Under the pieces are notes generated by a model, which worked only from the letters and a program-made list of their open reading frames with translations, was not told where the DNA came from and made no database searches. The translations under genes and the position numbers were made by a program. A stretch of DNA of 55,157 nt, the filler included, from Sluysia triapertura (Eukaryota), in the NCBI GenBank assembly GCA_046118255.1. It is 4 parts of 4 records of this genome, joined end to end, with 100 filler letters (N's around TTAATTAATTAA, not from the genome) between each part and the next. Parts side by side here need not be neighbours in the genome. Positions count along the whole stretch, not along the records: positions 41,340 to 55,157 come from JBJNIA010017746.1; 3 more parts are not named here. One strand, written 5' to 3'. Shown in pieces: positions 37,279-55,157 of the stretch (within the stretch, counting starts at the first letter, position 1; every line of letters starts with the position of its first letter).

Positions 37279-38332
<1,054 letters not shown>

Positions 38333-41339: not shown

Positions 41340-43534
41340 TAAAATTTATATTTTATTATTTATTTTATATTTTATGCATTTTATGTTTCGCGTATTGATT
41401 AAAAATTATAAAAATTATTATTATTTAAAAAATGACAATTAACATCATATTAAAAATTATAAAATTTAATTATTTCAAATTACAAAGAAAACAGAATATT
41501 CTAGTACAAGTTGTAATTAATTAAATTTTTAATATGGTTCCTTAGCGTATAAAGATAAGAAAAATAGTAACAATCACAATTGATAGACAAGTTAACAACA
41601 CAAGAAGAATCGCCATTTTTAGATCACAAATAAAGCACAATACTACTGTACAAAGCAGTTAGACAAGAAGGAACACAAAGAAGTTATATAATTGATGTTT
41701 TATGATACAAAGCTCCGACTATATTAAACTAAGTGTTTAATACATCATATTAATTCTACGATATCTAAGACAAGAAAAATTTAGTTATCCGAAAATCAAA
41801 TTTTTTATTCTATCAATTCCCATTTATGTTATAAAGCAATATTAAGTAGTAAGTTTATTTTAAATAGATTTCAGACTCGTAAGAATTAAAATATTTACTT
41901 AAAATACTTGTTTTCAGTTGATCATTAAGGCCAATTATAAAATATAAATCCATTTGGCCGAGTCCTTTGGATAGGTCAACTTATTTAAAATCATTTATTA
42001 TTATTACTATATTATTATTGCTTATATTTGATAAATTTGAATTTATATATTTTATTTTCTTTATAACGAATTTTGACATAATACACATTGTATAATTTTA
42101 ATATTGTGATTTATTAAAGTTTAACGTAAAAGTTACCATGCAAATCTATTAGCAACATAATAATAAGAAAACTTAAAGACACATTACCATCATTTACTGT
42201 GTGACTAAAATAATCTTAAATTGATTTTTGACCATAGTGTTCATTAAGATAACGCGTATAGATTCGTGAATTAGACTTCGTTTTAGTAATATTTAATAAA
42301 TAATTGAATTATAAAGACATGAGAGAAGTACGTTATTGCACGATGTCTTTATCGTTATTCTTAGGAATATTTCACGTTACTTACAGATACGCCATTGATA
42401 AGTCGTATAATGTAAGCGGACTCTAAATATTAATTTATTTTGCTGTTAGGTAAGTTTTAGAGTTAAAATATATAGCTAAAATTATTTATTGTCATCCAAC
42501 AATTATTTATAAAATTTTATTATTATTGTTGTTATTGTTATTGTTGCTGAAATTGTATGATTTAATCTTGATAAATTACAAAATTACGAAACATTAGATT
42601 TATGCAAATTTTTATACTTTTTTTGTTTCAAATATTCTAATTCTGATGAGATAATGGTTTTATTTTTGATATACTTTAAACGTTCAAATGATTTTTTATT
42701 TTTACTCGACGATATATTATCTTTAGAAATATTAGTGATTTGTGACTATTAATTTTGAAGATATTTGTAACAAGTATATTTTTGATTTTCTGACGACGAT
42801 TTGATTTATGAAATTAAAATACTTTTACAATTAACAATAATCTGATCCACATGAATTCACGAATGTTTCATTAAAATAGCTTTTTCATTTTGTTCAATTT
42901 GCAATTTCAGCAAAGCATTATTCATTAACTTTGTAATGCTTACTACATATTTCTGCAATTTATTTTTAATATTGGTAACATTTGTTCGATTATAATACAA
43001 GCATTTCTCATTACTCTATAAAAATGGTATAATTCAGCGACATTTGAAGATTTAGGAATGTCTGAAAAAGTTGGAGAATCAGACTTAAATAGCGTTATTT
43101 TCTGTTTAATATTAAATTTATCATTTTCTATTTCTGATGCTTCATAAATTCCAAATTGATTTGTTTCTAAACTAGTTATAATTTTTCAATATTATGTTTT
43201 GAAGATTAAGAGAAAAAAAGAAAATATAATAGAAGAATTGTGAGTGTTTTTATAGAAATTTCATTGTTATTGAAACCATGTTTAATTTTAAATTTTGGGT
43301 TTTGGTGTTGGTGTGCTTAAGTCTTTGTGCGATTACACATTTGTTTAATATTTTGTGAAGTAAATGTGATGTTTTGTTTAACTATGTTTGGTAAAATTTT
43401 CAATGATAGATTTGAACCACTCAAACATTTCAAATTTATTTCTAGATTCTCCTTTATAGCAATAATTTCATTCATTTCATTATCAAAATTCAGCATTCAA
43501 AAATTAAAAATTAATTAAAATTTAACTTAATTCA

Positions 43535-43750
43535 TTATTAAGGCTTTCCTTGCACGAACTCGGTAAAACGATATCGTTATCGATAGATATTTTTAAAACA
43601 TCGACAGTACATTTATCAATCAAACTAAGATTTTAATTAATCAATTTTTAGATTTAATCTTATTTTATGCTTAAAGGTTTTATTAAGGTTTGAAAGTTGT
43701 TTTGTACTTTATAATGCAATCAGGTCATTCGAGATGCTTTCACTTTTACC
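43535..43750. repeat. Dispersed repeat copy homologous to 18470-18745
   Basis: Shared TATTAAGGCTTTCCTTGCAyGAAyTCGGT and TTTTTAGAyTTAATCTTATTTTATGyTTAAAGGTTTTATTAAGGTT. Confidence 0.8.
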
Positions 43751-43841
43751 TCAGTATATTAAGAAATCTCTCTGTTTAGTGATTTGAGATTTAACTGTTT
43801 TTAAATATTAGAAATCTGTAGAGTAATCATAAAGTACGATG

Positions 43842-43908
<67 letters not shown>

Positions 43909-44469
43909 TTTAATTTTCTGTAAAAGAACTTTTAAGTATTGTAATTATTTAAAATAGTAAACATAAACCAAATAATTGATTTAATTGTAATGTGTTCAAA
44001 ATAAATGTAAATTTTATTGTAGTAATTGCTGTAATTATTTAATTTGTAAACAAAATAACGAAAATAATTGTTTGAATTATTGTGCATTTATTCCTCCGAT
44101 GAAAATTGTAAAATAATTGTTTAATTGAAATTGTTCTACATTTACGATTCTCGGAAAATAAGTACAAAAATAACATATTAGTCACTCACAAATAATTTTA
44201 AAGTGAAACTTAGAATGAATTAGTTCGAATACATATTCAATTTGGAAGAATTTCAATTCACTTCTTGCAGAAATATCAATCTTCGAAGATCAAATTTTAT
44301 TACTAATATTTTATTTATTTGACATTTGAAAATTATTTGAAATTAAATTAAAATCCTTTCTTGAAAATAAATAATTATTAAAATAAATTAATGATATTTA
44401 TAATTTGTCTAAATTAGACTTTACAACTTATGATTAAATTGGACTTTAACTTTGACTTTAACTTTACAA

Positions 44470-44545
44470 TAGTGAGGTTTTATTAAAGTTAATTAAATTT
44501 AATATTGATTTAGCGTAATTAATAATTTTCAAAGACGCAACAATA
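44470..44545. repeat. Dispersed repeat copy, inverted relative to 17410-17485
   Basis: TAATAATTTTCAAAGACGCAAC is the reverse complement of GTTGCGTCTTTGAAAATTATTA at 17411. Confidence 0.7.
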
Positions 44546-46642
44546 GCATTGATGATGGGTTTTATTATGAAGTTTTATCTTCGGATTTTGATGATTATTT
44601 TATAAGTTTATGTATTCGTTGCTATTTTTCTCTCCGTTAAAGTTTTTATATCAATATTATAGCTTTTACGTATAAAGGTAGTTGTCTTATAAAATGTATA
44701 GGTTTTGTAATGTTGGTGATTTTCTATTACTATTTAGTAATATTTAATAATACCTATTAACAGTATCACGCTGAAAAGGATGTAAACATTGTAAATATCA
44801 TCATTGCAAGATCGAGTATATATTATAACTTTTATAACAATAGAAACTTCACAGTCATAACCATGGTACATATAAAATATAATATTTTATATGTAATCAT
44901 GTACAAGTTTATAGGTTTCTAGTTCTAGTTTATAAGTTTTTAGATTAAGTATGAGTAAACTACAGCAGATGTTGTAGTAAAACGAAACTCATTTCCTGAT
45001 TAACTGACCATTAAGATTGACTTTAAATACTTAAAATAAATTTGGTAGCTTCATTTTTAGTTTCTATTTTGCTAACACCAAATACACATTTTTCGATGAT
45101 AAAACTGTAATCAACCAATCATAGCGCCCAAATCAATTTGTTACAACGTTGGGTCACTACTCGAATCTAGATCAATCTTACTGAACAAATGTTCGGAATT
45201 TGCTATTTTTGATCATATATTGCAATTCTTACATTATAAAATTCGTGCAAAATTAGAAAATATTAAAAAATTAGTACAAAATTAATAAAAATACAATCCC
45301 AGGTAAACTGATTTGATAATTTAATAATAATATAATAATATCAGTTACTAAATTTTAATATTAATAAATGAAAATTGTTTATATCTTTTTATACATGGAT
45401 TTCTAGAAATCATAAATATTGCTATTACTCAGAAACTTTGATTTTTATTATTAGTCAAAAAATACGTATTAAAATATATTATGTTGTACTAATTATTATA
45501 AGTAATTAATCATTGTTATATAATTATTTAATCTATAATATTGGTTGTTTTGAGACCTCAGCATAAATATTCTGAAATCACAGCTATTTTTATCTCAAGT
45601 GCAATATTTCAAATTTTAGCTCATTTGTTTAGTAAAATAAACGCATTCATATTTTTAGTTTTAAATACTTTGTTCTTGAAATAAATGGTCTACAAAATAT
45701 TTAGCATGGGACATTCGTAGACTGTAATGTAAATAATGTAAATTTAAAAAACTATATGGAATTTAAAATCATAAAATAGTACATAAAGTAATTAAAAATC
45801 GAAGTAATGATTACTCAACTAAAGGTTGTTGATATTAAATAATAGTTTAACATTTGAAATGAATTTATTGAATATTTTGTGTGCAACGTTCATTATTTTT
45901 TATTACAGCTGTAAAGTTTTCAGTACATTTATGATGTAATTTAGCATTTAAAACAGTTGTAAAATATTTTTCATACAATTTTTAAGTTCAGTGAAAATTA
46001 TCTTCACTTAAATTTCTTCGAAAAGTGTTACGAACATTGAACATTTTAAAAGAAGATAAATCATTTTCGGCAATAAAACAAATATTCGTTACTGACATGA
46101 TAATAAATAAAAGCTAAATAAATCTATTGAAAATTAATTAAATTCATTTGTGATCTGACACATTATAGAGCATAAATTAACAAGACAATACGGGAATAAA
46201 ATAATATAAGTCAATATAAAATATAAATTAATATTAATATTAAGAATCGGATGGTTTTTTGGAAATATAAAATTATATTTAGAAAATAAAAGTACTTTTA
46301 ACAAAAAAATTCTAATAATTTAATTAATTTAATTCACTTTAATAGTTTTTAATAATAATAAGCTATTTATTAATAACATGTAGATATTACAAAAAATTGA
46401 TTATTTAATAATAAAAAAATTATTTAAAAATTATTTCGATCAGACTTTCAAACTTTTCAGAAATAAATTACTCAATGCTGTAAGTAAATAAATTTAATGA
46501 AAAAGAATATCAATTAATTCGTTCTATTGTTTGAACAAATTCCAATAGTATCAAATTTCAAAAGGGAAATATATCTATTTTTGTGTACCGTATTATTATT
46601 ATTATTATGATTATGATTATGATTATTATTATTATTATTATG

Positions 46643-46695
<53 letters not shown>

Positions 46696-46842
46696 GATGC
46701 ATTTATCATTATCATATTTTTATAAAAATTGTTTAAACATCTGGTCTGAAATCACTATTTTTCAAGAAGTTTTCTTCAAACTTTTGGAATTTGAATTTGA
46801 ATTTCTGGTAAGTGGGTTTTAGTTTCATTACAATTCCTAAGT

Positions 46843-47391
46843 ATGAGAGATTTTCCTATACCGGATTTATATGGCAAATTTAGGGCTGATCTAGGTGGCT
46901 ATAATGTAATTACTGTTCATCACGATTCAAATGGAAGTTTTCCTAGTATTATATCTGTTGGTTTCTTACGAAATTTAGCTATTAAATCATGTCATATGTA
47001 TACATCATGTTAAAGTATACATGATTTAAAAAAGCAATGTAAAATAAATTTACATAAAAGTCGTGAGTACAAACCAGTTTTAAATGAATTTGAAAATAAC
47101 TTAACGTTATTTATCGCCGGTTTTATAAATGAAGCTTCCTCGGAAGGTTCAGAAGAATAGGCCACTGCAACTATCTTTGTTAAGGATAATCAAATGTTGT
47201 TACATTTAGTTTAAATATTATTTATAAAACGGCTAAATAAATCTGGTCATTTCATTCAAGAACTGTTGCATTGGTTAAATATACAATTACCGAGAACACG
47301 TAGTGGTTCGAAATTAAATAATGCTTTAATTTTAAATGAAATTATAGTCACGAAGAAAATATCAAAGATGAAAATGCCGCACCAAAATTGA
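46843..47391 (+). pseudogene. Decayed intronless ORF of unknown function (183 codons, 3 internal stops), possibly Polinton cargo
   Basis: MRDFPIPDLYGKFRADLGGYNVITVHHDSNGSFPSIISVGFLRNLAIKSCHMY...VLNEFENNLTLFIAGFINEASSEG...QELLHWLNIQLPRTRSGSKLNNALIL in a single frame. Confidence 0.55.
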
Positions 47392-47502
47392 GAGGAGGAA
47401 TAATGTTATCTTAATTTTACTGATCATTTTTAAATTTTGCAGTTTGTTGTAGAATACCCTACAAATTTATTGTTTATAAATTTGCCTTTTAAGCATAAAT
47501 GT

Positions 47503-47610
47503 ATTAGATTCCTCGTTCATTATTTGTTTAATAAAGAGACAGCTAAACATATTGTTCATTCATTACTAACCAACAACATAGATTTTAATAATGGTTTATT
47601 GTACTCAATT
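47503..47610 (+). mobile_element. L2/CR1-clade LINE reverse transcriptase C-terminal fragment
   Basis: IRFLVHYLFNKETAKHIVHSLLTNNIDFNNGLLYSI matches the L2/CR1 motif IR.IR.YL...TAK.LVHALV.SRLDYCNSLLYGL. Confidence 0.7.
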
Positions 47611-48295
47611 TCATATGTAGTGTTTTTGAGCACTTACTTTGAAGTAGATATGAGCGTAATATAAATTAATACATTATTATTTTAATCATTTTAGTTTTAA
47701 ATTTTTGTACAGAATAAAATGATTTAAGCACTGTTTTTAAACATTGTAATATAAAAATTAAAAGATCTATAAATATTAAAATTAAAATAAGATCTCGACC
47801 AAACCAAATATGAGCGCAGGTAATCATAAAAGTTATCTTACCACAGGTTTAAGTAATAGTAGATTTTTAAAAATACAAAACTAGATAATCACAAGGGTTA
47901 CAAAAATAAATCAACAATCGTTTAATAGCAAAATCAGCATCTAAAAGTTCATTTTCATACAGTACTACATCTTTAGGACCACCATCATTACAAAGTTAGA
48001 CCCACCCATAATTCTTGAAAGTAGTGAAGATAATGTAGATAATGATAATTTTCGTACTTCAATAAACGTAAAGGATGACGTAATTGTTGCAGAAGCGAAC
48101 TTAGGTTCATTAAACTCAAATTAAAACCAAATTATTTCAGAAATTGTTGGCATATAATAAAACAAATTCAATCGACAGAGAATGAATATTTATCTCGAAC
48201 AATTACAAAAAATTAGATTTTATTCACCGCAACGTAGAAAGCTTATAAATTTTAAGGAATATAAATTAATTACTAAATTTAGTAGCTCTCACAAA

Positions 48296-48440
48296 ATAAT
48301 GTATTCTGATATTAATTAAAGTATTATAAAAGTTATTCAGTCATTGTTATTAAGACATTGTTATTCAGATATTAATTAGAGTATTATAAAATTATTCTGA
48401 CATTGTTATTCAGTCATCAATTAAAGAGTTATAAAAGTTT
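48296..48440. repeat. Composite tandem repeat
   Basis: Alternating TATTCwGATATTAATTArAGTATTATAAAA and TTATTCAG(T/A)CATTG subunits. Confidence 0.75.
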
Positions 48441-48994
48441 ATCCACAAATAAATAGTGTCATGTTTTTGAATTAAAGAAACACGACCCTCAAAACAAAAA
48501 TATTGGGAAAACAAATTTCAAAATATTTTCATAAAACTATCAAGTTTAAAAACAGTAAACATTCTATAAATATCATACGCATAAATCACTTTCATTCATT
48601 ATTAATATTATTAAATTTATGAAATTTATCTTTGAAAATATTTGTAATTTCAAAATAAATGTTATGAACCTAAATTAATTCTAATAACAAAATTCGAACC
48701 TAACTATTGTTTCTTAATCTTAATAAATAGATCACTGTCGAAAATCAACTAACATCTACGAATAAAATTAATTTTTCACAAAAAATACCATCAACAAAAT
48801 TCTGAGATATGTTTTTGATACTAATATTTTTATTATTGATAAAAATATGACTCAAACTAAAGTATTTAAAATTGCAACTACCATCTTGTCAATTTCGTGA
48901 AGCTAAATTTGTATAGAGGTAGGATAATGAAATGAAGATTCCCAAAGAAAAAAATTTAAAGAAATAAACCTGTTGCTATAAGTTAAGTTTAAAA

Positions 48995-49520
48995 ATAGAT
49001 TTAAATAATGATGCAACGTTCAAGGTGGTAGTAGAAAAACATATTTTCTAAGTAAATTACTACGAAGTAATAAATTTAAAAATAACTTTAATAAAACATT
49101 TTAGCATCAATATGGGTGTGGAGAAGCATAGTTAATTCAAACCGAACTTATTAAATTAAAACGTATTAAAGTAATTAATGTTTTTGAAAAAAATTGGTCA
49201 TGCAGAATACATAAACGTGATTTAGTGGTTATTGATAACTTATACCAAGTAGCTAATGGTGTATCCAAGAAAATAGCTACATTTTAATTTTTATAACTCA
49301 AAATCTAATATTGGAACTCGAAATTTAAATTTAAATTTAGTAATACTCAAAAATCATATAGATCAAACTCTAATCGATTATTTATCGTGACAAGTATTTC
49401 CAGATAACATTATTTTTAATAAATGCTTTTCATGATGTCATAGAAATATCACATGGATATTTGTTTTTAGGTTTTACACAAGCATGCCCTAATGACATGA
49501 CTACACCTACTGATATACGT
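48995..49520 (+). mobile_element. Polinton/Maverick DNA-packaging ATPase (A32/FtsK-HerA type) pseudogene
   Basis: Motifs in the expected order: GGSRKTYFLSKLL (Walker A, 49024), LVVIDNLYQ (Walker B, 49222), ILIFITQNL (49281), LVILKNHIDQTLIDYLS*QVFPDN (about 49337), AFHDVIEISHGYLFLGFTQACPNDM (about 49425). These parallel Polinton ATPase motifs GSGKT / LIILDDLM / IYITQNLF / VLFKNPRD..QI..LARQ.YP / AY.DAT..P.GYL..DL.Q.TP. Confidence 0.85.
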
Positions 49521-49565
49521 ATCACTTATTTATAATCAATGTACTAAATAAGGTATTAATTAATT

Positions 49566-49875
49566 ATGAATAATTTTAAAAAGTTGTAGTTAAACCTAAT
49601 AAAGTTAAACACCTAATTTCGACTATACTGCAACAAAATAAAAAGACGAATTTTGAACTTATTTTACCATACTTTAATGCATTATTGATAGCACAAAAGT
49701 CTCATAGATGTTAATGTTAATGAATTTAAAAAGAAGCAAACATTATTGAATTATAAGAATCTACTTATTGATTTAAAAAATGCAACGTCTGAATTCTAAA
49801 GGACAAGTAATTTACAAACAGAATGGTGCAATAATTCCAGTAACTGCTGGATTAGTAAATTACGGAATAGGATAA
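49566..49875 (+). mobile_element. Polinton small conserved ORF (PW-like) pseudogene
   Basis: Basic helical segment (FKKKQTLLNYKNLLIDL) then KGQVIYKQNGAIIPVTAGLVNYGIG*, resembling the Q.GG-F-L-P hydrophobic tail of the small Polinton protein usually found beside the ATPase. Confidence 0.5.
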
Positions 49876-50075
49876 TAGGCTCAGCATTATCTAGTTTATC
49901 TAATATAAATTTCAGTGTAACATCAGATTTTTGTAATGGACAAAGTCGATAAATATGTGGTTCGCTCCAATACAGGAATAGAAAAACTAAAAAGGAGGAG
50001 GCGACAAAATGAATGAGAAATCAATTAACAAACAAATGATAAGAAGATTTCGACACATAAATATAAACCAAAAAT

Positions 50076-50160
50076 AAACCCAAATATAATGTTGGCGATT
50101 GCGTGAGAATATCAAATTTTCAACAACTCCCTTCACAAAAACTTTATTCATAAGAAGTAT
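50076..50160 (+). mobile_element. Polinton retroviral-like integrase C-terminal remnant
   Basis: KPKYNVGDCVRISNF...LYS*EV matches the Polinton integrase tail KPKFKVGD.VRISK.......WS.EIF. Confidence 0.75.
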
Positions 50161-51470
50161 AATAATAAGAGAAAATAATGATAATAATGATTTAACTTGA
50201 AATGTATTTAAAATGCAAACTGTAAGTATTTAATAATTATTTAAACTAAGTATTTAAACTAATGATTATTGTGCAATAAATGATAAAGTTTATTACAATT
50301 CCTAAATAATTTAGAAATGTCATTTTGAAAAGAAGTATCATTTATTATCTTGTTATATTTTGATAATAATTCAAAAAGGCAATACTTTTAATTTATAGCG
50401 AACTTTAAATATTTTTCCTTTTCTAAGTAATTTAGAACGGAAACAATATATTATCGTATTAATGCTACATATAATCTGAAATATTTTAATAATTAAAAAT
50501 TATTCTAATAAAAAGATTAACAAAAGACATTAATAAATTAAAAATATTTAATAACATATAGTATTAAGTGGAACTTTTTTAAAAAAGTTTACCATAATAT
50601 CGAATGAATAACACATTTTCAAAATTATCAATGCCTTATTCGGTCACTCTGTTTTATTAAATTTGAATTGCTAATTTTATGAAACAATCTAGATATTTAA
50701 GAAATATTATGAAAATTTATAAGAAAATAGAATTTACGGGAACTAACAAGTTTTACGATAGAAATATTAGTAGGAATTTCTAATTTAAGCATAACAATAA
50801 AAACGCTTTTATTATTTTTGTATTTGTAATGAAAAGTCTGAGAATAGTAAAAATTATTTAAGTGAATTTAGCATAAAAGTAACTTTTTTATTAACGGAGA
50901 TGATAATAAAATTTTCGATAACAAAGTTAAGAGATTAATAATTAACATAATGAATAATAATAATAAATCATATAAATTTCATAAATTTAATAATCAACAA
51001 TCGTCATCTTCATCACTAAATAACTAATCTGAAAAATTGAATGAATTAAGAGTTGGTTGATATATTTAAATCGTATAATGTATATTTGTTAATAATAGAT
51101 ATGTTTCTTTATTCTTTATGTTTCGATCTATTGTCACCTAATTTTTTTGCTTAAGATATGAAACGATAAGTGAATCATTTGAGATATTATCGAGTTTATC
51201 TTCATGATAGTGGTGGAAACAAGGAAGCGATAAAACGGAATGAAAAAAGAATGAAAGTGAAAAAAATAGAAAAATCAAAAAATAATAATACTTTGATGAC
51301 AATAATGTAGTGATAATAACAAATAATGAGAGAAAATAAAAGAATAACAACAATGGATAACAACAATACAGTATTAATTTTAGTTCCTGTCTCTGTATTG
51401 TTATGATTAATATTGTCACAATTATTGTGATTATTATGAAGATATTATTGGGATACAGGCCTAAATGCCA

Positions 51471-51545
51471 TTTAGTATGATAATTCTGTAGATAGAGTAT
51501 CGAACTGCGTAGCGAGAGGTCCCGGGTTCGAATCCTGGTCTAACA
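51471..51545 (+). mobile_element. tRNA-derived SINE head or tRNA pseudogene
   Basis: Intact T-arm/B-box GGTCCCGGGTTCGAATCCTGG. A-box degenerate (TAATTCTGTAGATAGAG). Acceptor and anticodon stems pair poorly. Confidence 0.65.
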
Positions 51546-52117
51546 ATATATTAAATTTGTGTTATGTCATATTAAGATTTTCTGTTGGTTTAATATTTTG
51601 TGTTGAGTTGAAATTTTTTCAAGGTTTTGTTTATGAGAAATGTGTTGATGTTTGTCTATGATTATGTTCTTGTTGAGTTAAGTGTGTTAAACATTTCAGA
51701 TATTTGTAAAGTTCTCATTTGATTAAACTATTATTTACAAAATTGCACATACTATATATTTTAAAGGGTATTTAAGCTATGTAAGCAAACCCACTTACGT
51801 AGGTCTAAAATTCAATTGTGATACTGAAACCACATCAGTAGGGGAAACTAAATTTTTATTCGTTATATTCTTTATTTTATATTTTATAAATAATTGTACT
51901 TCTATACAATTTCCAACTTATATTTTCTAATAAATACATTTTTAGTCTTTACAAAAATATAGATGTTCTTTCAGAATTACTAGATCTACAAAATGTCATT
52001 ATAACCGAACAGTCTAAGAAAACTTATAGGAAAAATATCTCATTAGCTTAATGTTTTAAGTAAATAGTCAATAAACCTACTGCACTTTTATTGTAACTGA
52101 GTATAATAATTAATTTT

Positions 52118-52131
52118 GTTATTATTATTAC

Positions 52132-52196
<65 letters not shown>
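52118..52196. repeat. (TTA)n microsatellite directly upstream of a splice acceptor
   Basis: Near-perfect tract ending about 20 nt before TTTCAG at 52215. Confidence 0.95.
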
Positions 52197-52198
<2 letters not shown>

Positions 52199-52215
52199 TT
52201 TATGTTAAATTTCAG

Positions 52216-52317
52216 TATCGCAGTGATGATATTATTGGATTTTTAAATAAAAAGGCTGCAGAATTTCAAGAAGATTTAGTAATAAGTTCTTGGAAAAAAG
52301 AATTGCCAAAGTTATTG
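52216..52317 (+). CDS. Orphan internal coding exon, 102 nt (YRSDDIIGFLNKKAAEFQEDLVISSWKKELPKLL)
   Basis: TTTCAG acceptor, G|GTTAG donor, 34 stop-free codons with protein-like composition. Family not recognised. Confidence 0.6.
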
Positions 52318-53012
52318 GTTAGATATAAATTTATTAAAATCGTATGTAATGCCTATTAAAACTTGTATGTCATATAATGATATGTCGTTTAATTATGTTA
52401 TAAAACTTGAATTTAATAATTATGAATTACATAATAGTTTCTTGTTTTGTTATTTAACCCGAAGTATTTTATCAATTTATAAAACTATTAGTTTTATAAT
52501 AAAGTTCGGATTAAGTAAAATTAATTATTTTTGCTCGATCATATGATTTGTGTGTTTTTATTGGTTGTAATGAGTGGTTCGATGTGTTTTGAGAAGTTTG
52601 TTTATAACAAAATGCTTTAGCGCGGTTATAATGATCTGATTGGTTTATTATTGTGCAGTAGTTTTGATTAGAATGAGAGTATTCGTTTATCTTAAATTTG
52701 GATTTGGTGTTAATAAGTTGGAAGTGATATTTTAGTTTAGTTTATATTATTGTAAATTGTTTATGTTGGGTTTCAGGGAATTATAATAATTTTAAATTGT
52801 TATTAATATTTTGCACTTACAACCCTAAAATAGATTAACAAATAATACTTACTGAACTAATATATAAATACTTACTTTCTTATTTATAGCAATCATATGC
52901 ATACGAAATTGGAGCAATATGCACCAAGTATTATTACTTAAAATTTAAGAATTTCGTCCAAAACTTTATATTTATTCACTTTAAATTTGCTGTGGTTTTC
53001 TTAAAGTTAAAT

Positions 53013-53056
53013 CTACGGCAAAATAAAACTGGGCAGGGTCCAGTTACAGTAAACGT
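53013..53056 (-). mobile_element. Partial copy of the 14045-14242 MITE
   Basis: Its reverse complement ACGTTTACTGTAACTGGACCCTGCCCAGTTTTATTTTGCCGTAG aligns without gaps to 14076-14119. Confidence 0.75.
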
Positions 53057-53319
53057 AACTAATATGTTGAGAATCATACTTAAAAATATTAGGTCTAACA
53101 CGTTCCTAACAATTTTATTACGAGGGTCTTAATTAAATGTGTCAATTTATCAAAAACGAAAAACAATACTTAATTTTTATTGATAACACTAAAAATTTTG
53201 ATAATAGAAGAAAAAGAATAAAGGTTAAAATTAAAAAATATATGATGCGTGTTCTGGTTGGATGGCCAATTAAAGCAGATAAATAAATAATATGCAAGTA
53301 AATTAAACTGTGATGCCAA

Positions 53320-53380
53320 CCATCATCAACAGTGACAATGAGCCATATATGTAAATTAAACATGTCACCGTTGATGATGG
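53320..53380. repeat. Inverted repeat: 18-bp stem (17/18) with 25-nt loop
   Basis: CCATCATCAACAGTGACA / TGTCACCGTTGATGATGG, preceded by TTAA at 53302. Confidence 0.8.
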
Positions 53381-53461
53381 CAGTTACCAAATTAATTGAA
53401 TTACTAGTAAATAATAACGAAAATTAAAATGGTAATAGTAATAATAATAACAAAATGTTAC

Positions 53462-53498
<37 letters not shown>

Positions 53499-55054
53499 TC
53501 ATAAACTCTTTGTATTTTGAAAGCTTTCTACGTGATCTTTCTTTTATTTTGTTTATTTTCTCAACATATTTAAATTTAATTACCTAAAATGCTTAGAATG
53601 AAATTATTTTAAGATGTCTGCAAGTTGAATGTCGGGATATGATGAGCATGAAACGTTTTAATCTAATTTTACTTGATGTTTGGTGGTTTTGCGTAAATTT
53701 TAAAATATTCAGCATAATGTTCTAAATGAGATAATGTTTCTAGCTGAAAATGTTAATAGATCATGAGTTACTAATATGTTATAAGGTGTAGTTTAGTAAA
53801 TGTAAAAAAAATAAATCATAGCCTAACTTTTAGTATGTTCAAAAGGTGATTGTACAATGTTGAAATGTGATTTATTTTCTCGATATGTTTAGGTAGTGAT
53901 ATCTTGATGTGTTGTAGAGAATTAAATAATGCAGATCATGAATTTAGAATGTTTGGATTGCTTTGAAGATGTTTGTTAGTTAATCTCGAATGTGATTGTG
54001 ATTGAATTGTTAAGAAATGCAGAATAAAATATTTTAGATGACTTTTTTAATGTAAATTAATGGTTTTGAATGTAATTGTGGTTTGAACGTTATGAGATTG
54101 TGGGTTTAATTGATTTTAACGGATGAAAACGTTTTTAGTGGATGTAAAAGAGATAAATATGGGAGTGTTAAAATGTTTAAGAGTATGGTTTTATGTACAA
54201 TATGTTGATTTAGGTTATTATTGTTTTATGTTAAATTTTGAATGTAATGTCTAGATTTTGAGAGTGAATGTTACGTTAACAAAAGCTCATGTAAAAGGGA
54301 TATTTATGAAATGTGAATTTTAATAAAATTTATTAAGGTTATATGTTGGCCACCACAGAGGTACCTTTGAACTTGTGATCTTTAAAATCATTTAAGACCT
54401 TGATAAGCATTTAAGATCTTTGAGTAACCTTGCAAAGTAGTTGAAATCTTAAAAATTTTTGAGAAAATGATTGTTAAAGATGAATTTCATACAATAATAA
54501 ATAATGTAGAGAAGTGGGAAAAGGAATGAGTGTTGCGAAGATGAAAACATCTATAAGTCTCTGAATATCTTATAAAGTACTATGAGAATATGTTGCTTGA
54601 ATTTAAACTTTAATTTATATTATGTCTTTAATGTTTATGAGAGTCCTCTATGATATTGGGCTTATACACTTAAGAGTCATTCATAGATGTCAACGTAATA
54701 ATATAGTTGCACGTATTGGAGGTCAAAGGAAAAGATTTATTGTTGAAATTTTCTGCTGATTCGTTGGTTTAAATAATTTATATTTTGTATCTGATCCACG
54801 GTATAAGGATCTATTAAACAGATTTAATTTTATTATAAAATTATGTGTTCGTTAATATTAGTCTAGAATTTAAATTAATTTTAAAACTGTTGGGATTAGT
54901 GAAGAATAAGGGTTGATAGAAGGGTCAAAACTTGGGATAGCAGTGTCAGTGGAACGTTATTGAAAAATCAAGTTGAGGCATTATGATGAATTGAAATAGC
55001 GGGATAACTGTAGAGAGTATTTTAATCAGGGTAAAATGGTGAGAGATACGAAGA

Positions 55055-55157
55055 AACAACCCTGTAAAAGGTTTAATTTATTAAAACATTAAAGTACATT
55101 TGTTAATTAACTTAATTAAAATATGTTTAGTTTAATAACTCCATGGAGATGTCTGCT
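55055..55157. repeat. Dispersed repeat copy homologous to 19243-19346
   Basis: Shared ATTAAAGTACATTTGTTAATTAAyTTAATTAAAAT core with colinear flanks. Confidence 0.8.

Follow-up and report, generated by a model that had tools for sequence, protein, structure and literature searches.

The question raised by positions 48995 to 50160 of the DNA analysed here is whether the protein fragments that can be read through its stops and frameshifts are the fossil of a Polinton/Maverick endogenous virus, as the preliminary description proposed, and, if they are, what kind of Polinton it was and what became of it. The window, that is, the whole stretch of DNA that was analysed (55,157 nucleotides from Sluysia triapertura), is a pack of four stretches with GC contents of 23-26%. 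The locus lies in the last of them (positions 41340-55157); this last stretch is contig C17746, one of the 263,945 contigs that make up the 619-Mb assembly. We consider, with a probability of roughly 0.93, that a Polinton (adintovirus) with a Beta-class virion module left this copy, now pseudogenised and with internal deletions, which was likely inserted into the germline in one old burst and then decayed neutrally. The identification as a fossil Polinton is borne out by matches to an ATPase profile, a clean reversed control and sibling copies with termini.

The packaging ATPase

The features below were read from motifs, HMM, tblastn and DNA alignment to siblings for the whole pseudogene, and from six-frame translation for the single motifs.

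48998..49545, plus strand: A32/FtsK-type packaging ATPase pseudogene
49004, plus strand: ATPase motif NNDATF
49027, plus strand: ATPase motif GSRKT, presumably a damaged Walker A
49225, plus strand: ATPase motif VVIDNLYQ, presumably Walker B
49287, plus strand: ATPase motif IFITQNL
49316, plus strand: ATPase motif TRNLN
49346, plus strand: ATPase motif LKNHID
49452, plus strand: ATPase motif HGYLF

The ordered motifs described at first do hold through the broken frame, from 49004 to 49452 and across four frame changes; in-frame stops add to the damage, as do short deletions that affect the P-loop and the part following Walker B. A sibling copy supplied an open piece of 90 residues, and with this as query 163 proteins were retrieved, most of them with PF04665 (Pox_A32), and among the 120 listed of these the identity to the piece is 57-75%. 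An HMM built from 64 of the 120 listed intact natural relatives finds three ordered pieces in three frames of the window (iE 1e-19, 2.8e-7 and 5.2e-10), and the best match in the reversed window has an iE of 1, with none lower. The remnant thus matches a profile of A32-type relatives, and its intact relatives carry PF04665, as the A32/FtsK-type ATPase of a Polinton should. The window also matches P0005, an intact environmental protein, by tblastn (E 4e-35); its first ATPase piece, decayed as it is, remains 64% identical to that protein, so the Polinton was not very divergent, contrary to what had been supposed. No relevant Pfam match was obtained on the three stop-read frames of the window and 16 sibling fragments; decayed pieces need profiles closer than those of Pfam.

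GasderminX and the integrase remnant

Downstream of the ATPase, two further remnants follow on the same strand, the second of which was located by HMM and by DNA alignment through siblings.

49575..49880, plus strand: start of a small basic ORF, followed by what is left of GasderminX, broken and ending in a pX-like GGF-hydrophobic tail
49930..50153, plus strand: integrase remnant

At the protein level alone, the GasderminX and integrase pieces of the window are not significant. The GasderminX HMM gives three ordered pieces (iE 0.28, 2.1 and 1.5, with a best reversed control of 2.6), and an integrase HMM built from 40 integrases (that of the intact relative L041 and 39 of 150 listed) has its best window match at 50001-50135 with an iE of 0.037. 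Both remnants were placed by DNA alignment, with 66-92% identity per piece, to 22 of the 23 sibling loci tested; in most of these loci the two genes reach significant scores. The identity of the window GasderminX follows from this alignment because in the siblings the ORF scores up to E 2e-13. The QNG-hydrophobic tail that had been assigned to a small basic ORF was found at 49795-49875, with a protein-level score that is weak alone. Residues ~68-93 of the relative's ORF are missing, with the gap at 49708/49713.

Relatives of the pX-ending ORF numbered 26, and all of the 25 that were aligned end in a GGF-hydrophobic tail; the intact ones match PF05829 (Adeno_PX) below the cut-off (E 0.011 in L041). 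The fold model of one intact relative, P0124 (pLDDT 83.8), matches the GasderminX of the Terrapene box turtle adintovirus with a probability of 1.00, a TM of 0.78 and an E of 3.7e-3, the next match having an E of 0.73. Against solved structures the same model gave a best Z of 5.7 and no gasdermin among 50 rows. Judged by the predicted fold of its intact relatives, the small ORF of the window is GasderminX. The start of the small basic ORF precedes GasderminX both in the window and in L041 and has no Pfam match; its position suggests that it may be of Cupiennin type. In PMC8502044, GasderminX and Cupiennin are given as markers of Beta-class virion modules.

The sequence KPKYNVGDCVRIS, which had been read as an integrase tail, lies at 50076-50114, and DNA alignment to siblings fixes it as such. 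The tail does not stand alone, since a front piece is kept as well: residues ~45-80 (49990-50070) are joined straight to residues ~246-275 (50066-50153), and family similarity stops at 50153. The core had been called deleted, and indeed a deletion of ~500 bp took the catalytic core from the window copy, whereas sibling copies retain it. The rve domain expected of a Polinton integrase is recognised in L041 (PF00665, E 2.6e-15). A chromodomain (PF00385) scores E 0.004 in the L041 integrase, below the cut-off, and the window copy has lost the corresponding part.

The family in the genome

The host lineage did carry a Polinton, as the preliminary description held, and the window copy is no lone relic; it is one among many equally dead copies. 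Matches in the same genome amount to 153 for the ATPase (150 of 873 candidates scored), 110 for the hexon (101 of 647), 105 for a TBP-like gene (150 of 239), 140 for the pPolB exonuclease motif (150 of 268) and 114 for the integrase (113 of 1286), the last including unrelated retro-integrases. In the 150 listed ATPase matches, stop-free coverage amounts to 103 of 211 residues at most. The search of the assembly for relatives yielded siblings, terminal repeats and pPolB pieces, and no intact family copy was seen; young intact copies could be hidden because only part of the candidates was scored and the assembly is fragmented.

Gene order and strand are identical in 107 of 107 fetched loci with at least two markers; these loci were chosen by marker searches and some of them overlap on one contig. 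The order is terminus, TBP-like gene, segment X, ATPase, GasderminX, integrase, penton-like, core-like, hexon, protease-like, pPolB and inverted terminus. It was pieced together from overlapping loci, with at most six markers on one contig and none spanning the whole element. The TBP-like gene is linked to another marker in 25 of 40 loci, and pPolB to other markers in 17. The capsid, protease and pPolB genes, which had been considered gone, are absent from the window; sibling copies hold pPolB and putative capsid and protease genes. The putative hexon corresponds to a 412-aa ORF of L041 that matches PF21738 (DJR-like) weakly (E 0.039). The penton-like gene, without a Pfam match, is labelled by position, siblings matching the 361-aa ORF that follows the integrase in L041. 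Right after the hexon, siblings have a GEHW motif, which we take to be that of a protease, with no Pfam match on stop-read frames.

For the polymerase, PF03175 was matched above the cut-off by one of eight sibling pPolB pieces (26.7 vs 25.8 bits) and by one more at E 1e-4; the other six gave no match. A homologue search, a PDB sequence search and a phage tblastn with pPolB pieces returned nothing, and the leads from the Atlas, to clusters of PF03175 and endonuclease-VII polymerases, all stayed below 0.9. The Beta-class PolB is less than 30% identical to the PF03175 type and has an N-terminal OTU domain. The motif style of the sibling pieces (PFV.YADFE, HNL.GYD) presumably fits Beta. If the family were a chimera of a Beta virion module and an Alpha polymerase of the typical PF03175 type, the one piece above the cut-off would be explained, and such pairings are described for some adintoviruses in PMC8502044 and 10.1101/2024.03.25.586562. 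A genome search with PF03175, however, gave seven matches and none among the family loci examined, as would be expected if the polymerase lay far from the Pfam model, the distance by which Beta is defined; we regard the chimera as unlikely.

The matches of this genome search include one phage contig and four short contigs of 41-46% GC. The former (L127/L105, G000:C57989; also L106 and L111) has a phi29-like phage layout at 28% GC and is probably bacterial phage DNA in the assembly; its ORFs are, by our partly assumed labels, a TGA-read protein-primed polymerase, an ATPase-like and a connector-like one. The short contigs (L107-L110) hold polymerase pieces of the PF03175 type whose frames are nearly open (L107 with E 1e-20) and are a second, different Polinton type with a composition unlike that of the host.

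Termini, deletions and decay

The sequence shared by the copies stops about 1 kb 5' of the TBP-like gene, and an inverted copy of its end recurs 3' of the genes. Matches to the terminal sequence lie downstream and inverted in 18 cases, upstream in the same orientation in 14 (including 5 queries) and otherwise in 4. The termini begin with AGTAG, and the terminal motif has 119 matches against 0 in the control. The 6-bp flanks agree at 5 of 6 bases in three of the five facing terminal pairs (chance ~3e-5); the other two pairs show no clear duplication. According to 10.1101/2023.08.22.554363, Polintons have terminal repeats of 100-1500 bp and target duplications of 5-8 bp.

The units between facing termini measure 258, 549, 3185, 3344 and 4900 bp. 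Those of 258 and 549 bp (L241:135-392 and L242:133-681) consist almost only of two terminal repeats and may be mini-elements or extreme deletions. Since three of the five units have near-perfect target duplications and many copies lack large inner parts, short copies, that of the window included, could have moved in trans as a non-autonomous derivative after the deletion. The deletions of the window copy speak against this. Both flanks of its integrase junction are present in 13 loci (10 contigs); these have 337-492 extra bases at that place, and 0 of 13 span the junction, so that, as far as tested, only the window copy has lost the catalytic core in this way. The GasderminX deletion is likewise absent from siblings aligning on both sides, and the five terminal pairs all differ in length. 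We find a non-autonomous derivative very unlikely. The window copy has no working gene, and its deletions likely arose after insertion.

Differences between copies are spread evenly over the codon positions: 0.21/0.18/0.18 for the ATPase in 30 copies picked by DNA, 0.21/0.19/0.19 for the hexon and 0.20/0.18/0.21 for the integrase, each in 22 loci. Between the copies and L041 the values are 0.27/0.16/0.49, and this difference in pattern points to a burst followed by neutral decay. One master, or a few that were nearly identical, likely gave rise to the copies, on which selection then no longer acted. The median pair identity is 0.80-0.81 in well-aligned blocks and is biased upward; each lineage has gathered about 0.11 substitutions per site where the alignment is best, and up to about 0.18. 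A second run (X2), with scraps of coverage at low depth, provided no dating.

That the remnant was co-opted by the host, or that the match is due to chance or to an assembly artefact, we hold to be extremely improbable, and no supporting points were found. Stops, frameshifts and deletions have broken all of its genes, divergence is neutral, and the E-values exclude chance. Identical contigs of run X1, which was separately assembled and is probably the source data, cover the pieces of the window, and one with zero differences spans the integrase junction.

Going by Polinton biology, the active element would have copied itself from its termini by the protein-primed pPolB, the rve integrase would have inserted it with a 6-bp duplication, and the ATPase would have packaged its DNA into double-jelly-roll capsids. 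The protease likely cut the pX-like end of GasderminX. The germline would then have been invaded in one old burst, after which the copies decayed neutrally.

Flanks of the window copy

The family sequence reaches upstream to ~47806, beyond the start at 48995 given at first.

47806..48120, plus strand: family segment X, which in siblings separates the ATPase from the TBP-like gene
48132..48435, no strand assigned: stretch not common to most siblings, with short 30-45-nt repeats (D7, D8, D10)
48773..48995, plus strand: family spacer 5' of the ATPase, its DNA 60-80% identical to that of 10 of the 11 siblings compared
52620..52750, no strand assigned: lone terminal-inverted-repeat remnant, 94% over 33 nt (E 6e-10) and 80-94% to 7 fetched loci

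Of 2408 first-look candidates 40 were scored, and most of these matched segment X. It was seen in 45 fetched loci, always 5' of the ATPase and on the same strand, and is probably a small accessory ORF with its ATG at 47810. Pfam and the Atlas gave no match for it, and a coding test tells nothing here, since a codon signal among the copies is missing for the ATPase too. The spacing between X and ATPase is ~300 nt longer in the window than in siblings; the stretch at 48132..48435, with one strong match elsewhere (77%, L033), is likely a later insertion. No termini flanking the window copy were found. The lone terminus at 52620..52750 probably comes from another insertion because it is oriented as a left end of the window copy would be.

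Several neighbouring sequences were also recorded. Positions 46726-47534 were rejected as part of the element, as they match three loci (73-83%) without family genes and are a low-copy repeat. Just left of the remnant, at 47528-47697, lie very high-depth short repeat ends (summed depth above 100,000 in run X1). A tRNA-like stretch at 51478-51545 recurs in other loci and is probably a SINE head. Positions 54817-55157 belong to a high-copy repeat of about 1.3 kb starting with TGTTGGGATT (6522 first-look candidates, 88-91% identity at the 5' part). This younger repeat, which starts with TG, resembles a solo LTR, and one pPolB copy carries an insertion of it (L164:956-1188). In another of the four stretches, an open frame at 38000-38332 weakly matches a 2OG-Fe(II) oxygenase (E 0.029) and resembles what we take to be the last exon of an AlkB-family gene, presumably ALKBH6.

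The TBP-like gene and an intact relative

A metagenome scan gave nine loci, and in one of them, L041 (Ga0209893_1000171), the ATPase is 75% identical to P0005; scans of viral_contigs found no relative. The ORFs of L041 are, in order, TBP-like, small ORFs, RING, ATPase, small basic, pX-ending, integrase, 361-aa, 118-aa and 412-aa, and Pfam recognises TBP (E 1e-11), Pox_A32 (1e-6) and rve (3e-15). At L041:177-729 the TBP-like region lies in two overlapping frames and looks split, by an assembly error or in reality.

The TBP-like gene, which the window copy lacks, is the one unusual trait of the family. PF00352 exceeds its cut-off in L041 and in the fossil L130, and comparison with TBPs of the PDB gives E 2e-13; the second repeat is confirmed and the first is suggested by eye. 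TBP-like genes are named for non-animal MELD viruses in the Fig. 5 legend of PMC8502044. Literature searches for TBP in Polintons turned up only the adintovirus papers, and TBP is not mentioned in the main text of PMC11161782, PMC11131425 or 10.1101/2024.03.25.586562. Some 4.0 million characters of supplement to PMC8502044, perhaps truncated, give no animal example; figures and genome maps may show TBP in animal adintoviruses. Since MELD viruses have such genes, an animal case would mean a wider host range of a known trait and not a new kind of system.

A further reading, which we offer tentatively as a possibility that we ourselves somewhat doubt, is that the family is an undescribed Beta-type animal Polinton lineage with its own TBP homologue, which flooded the germline once and died, while close relatives that share its gene order are still found intact in environmental samples. 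If this is true, the TBP homologue beside the left terminus likely steers host RNA polymerase II to viral promoters, and the fossils would be a dated calibration point for the lineage.

Comparison with known systems

By its sequences, the remnant family appears to be an extinct Polinton with the virion module of a Beta-class adintovirus. It indicates heavy past replication of a Beta-type Polinton in the host germline, and for annotation it provides a repeat family with well over a hundred fossils in the genome. Endogenous degraded adintoviruses have already been reported from many animals, and the stretch is mostly ordinary because comparable Polinton fossils are known. Degraded relics are described in PMC8502044 and 10.1101/697771, one of them on human chromosome 7. 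Adintovirus virion genes are reported in PMC8502044 as restricted to animals, which makes an animal host likely.

With Polintons/Mavericks the family shares the core gene set, of which the hexon, penton and protease are putative, as well as terminal inverted repeats and 6-bp target duplications. Those elements are 13-25 kb long, whereas no full-length family copy was seen in this fragmented assembly and every listed copy is broken. L041 and the clusters P0004-P0123 have the same order as the fossils from the TBP-like gene to the hexon, where the sequence of L041 stops. Relative to the fossils, the ORFs of L041 are open and under purifying selection, and in the place that X takes in the fossils it carries small ORFs and a RING gene; a RING search found no matches in the family's own loci.

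The closest known systems are the Beta adintoviruses (Terrapene; Polinton group 1 polymerases, as given in PMC8502044), which share the ATPase, GasderminX, rve integrase, a putative hexon, a protease-like gene and a probably divergent pPolB, and which also have a small basic ORF at the Cupiennin position. For the hexon and pPolB the likeness to these viruses is one of gene content. Unlike these viruses, the fossil family has a TBP-like gene near its left end and the segment X. It has also left more than a hundred dead copies and not one lone relic.
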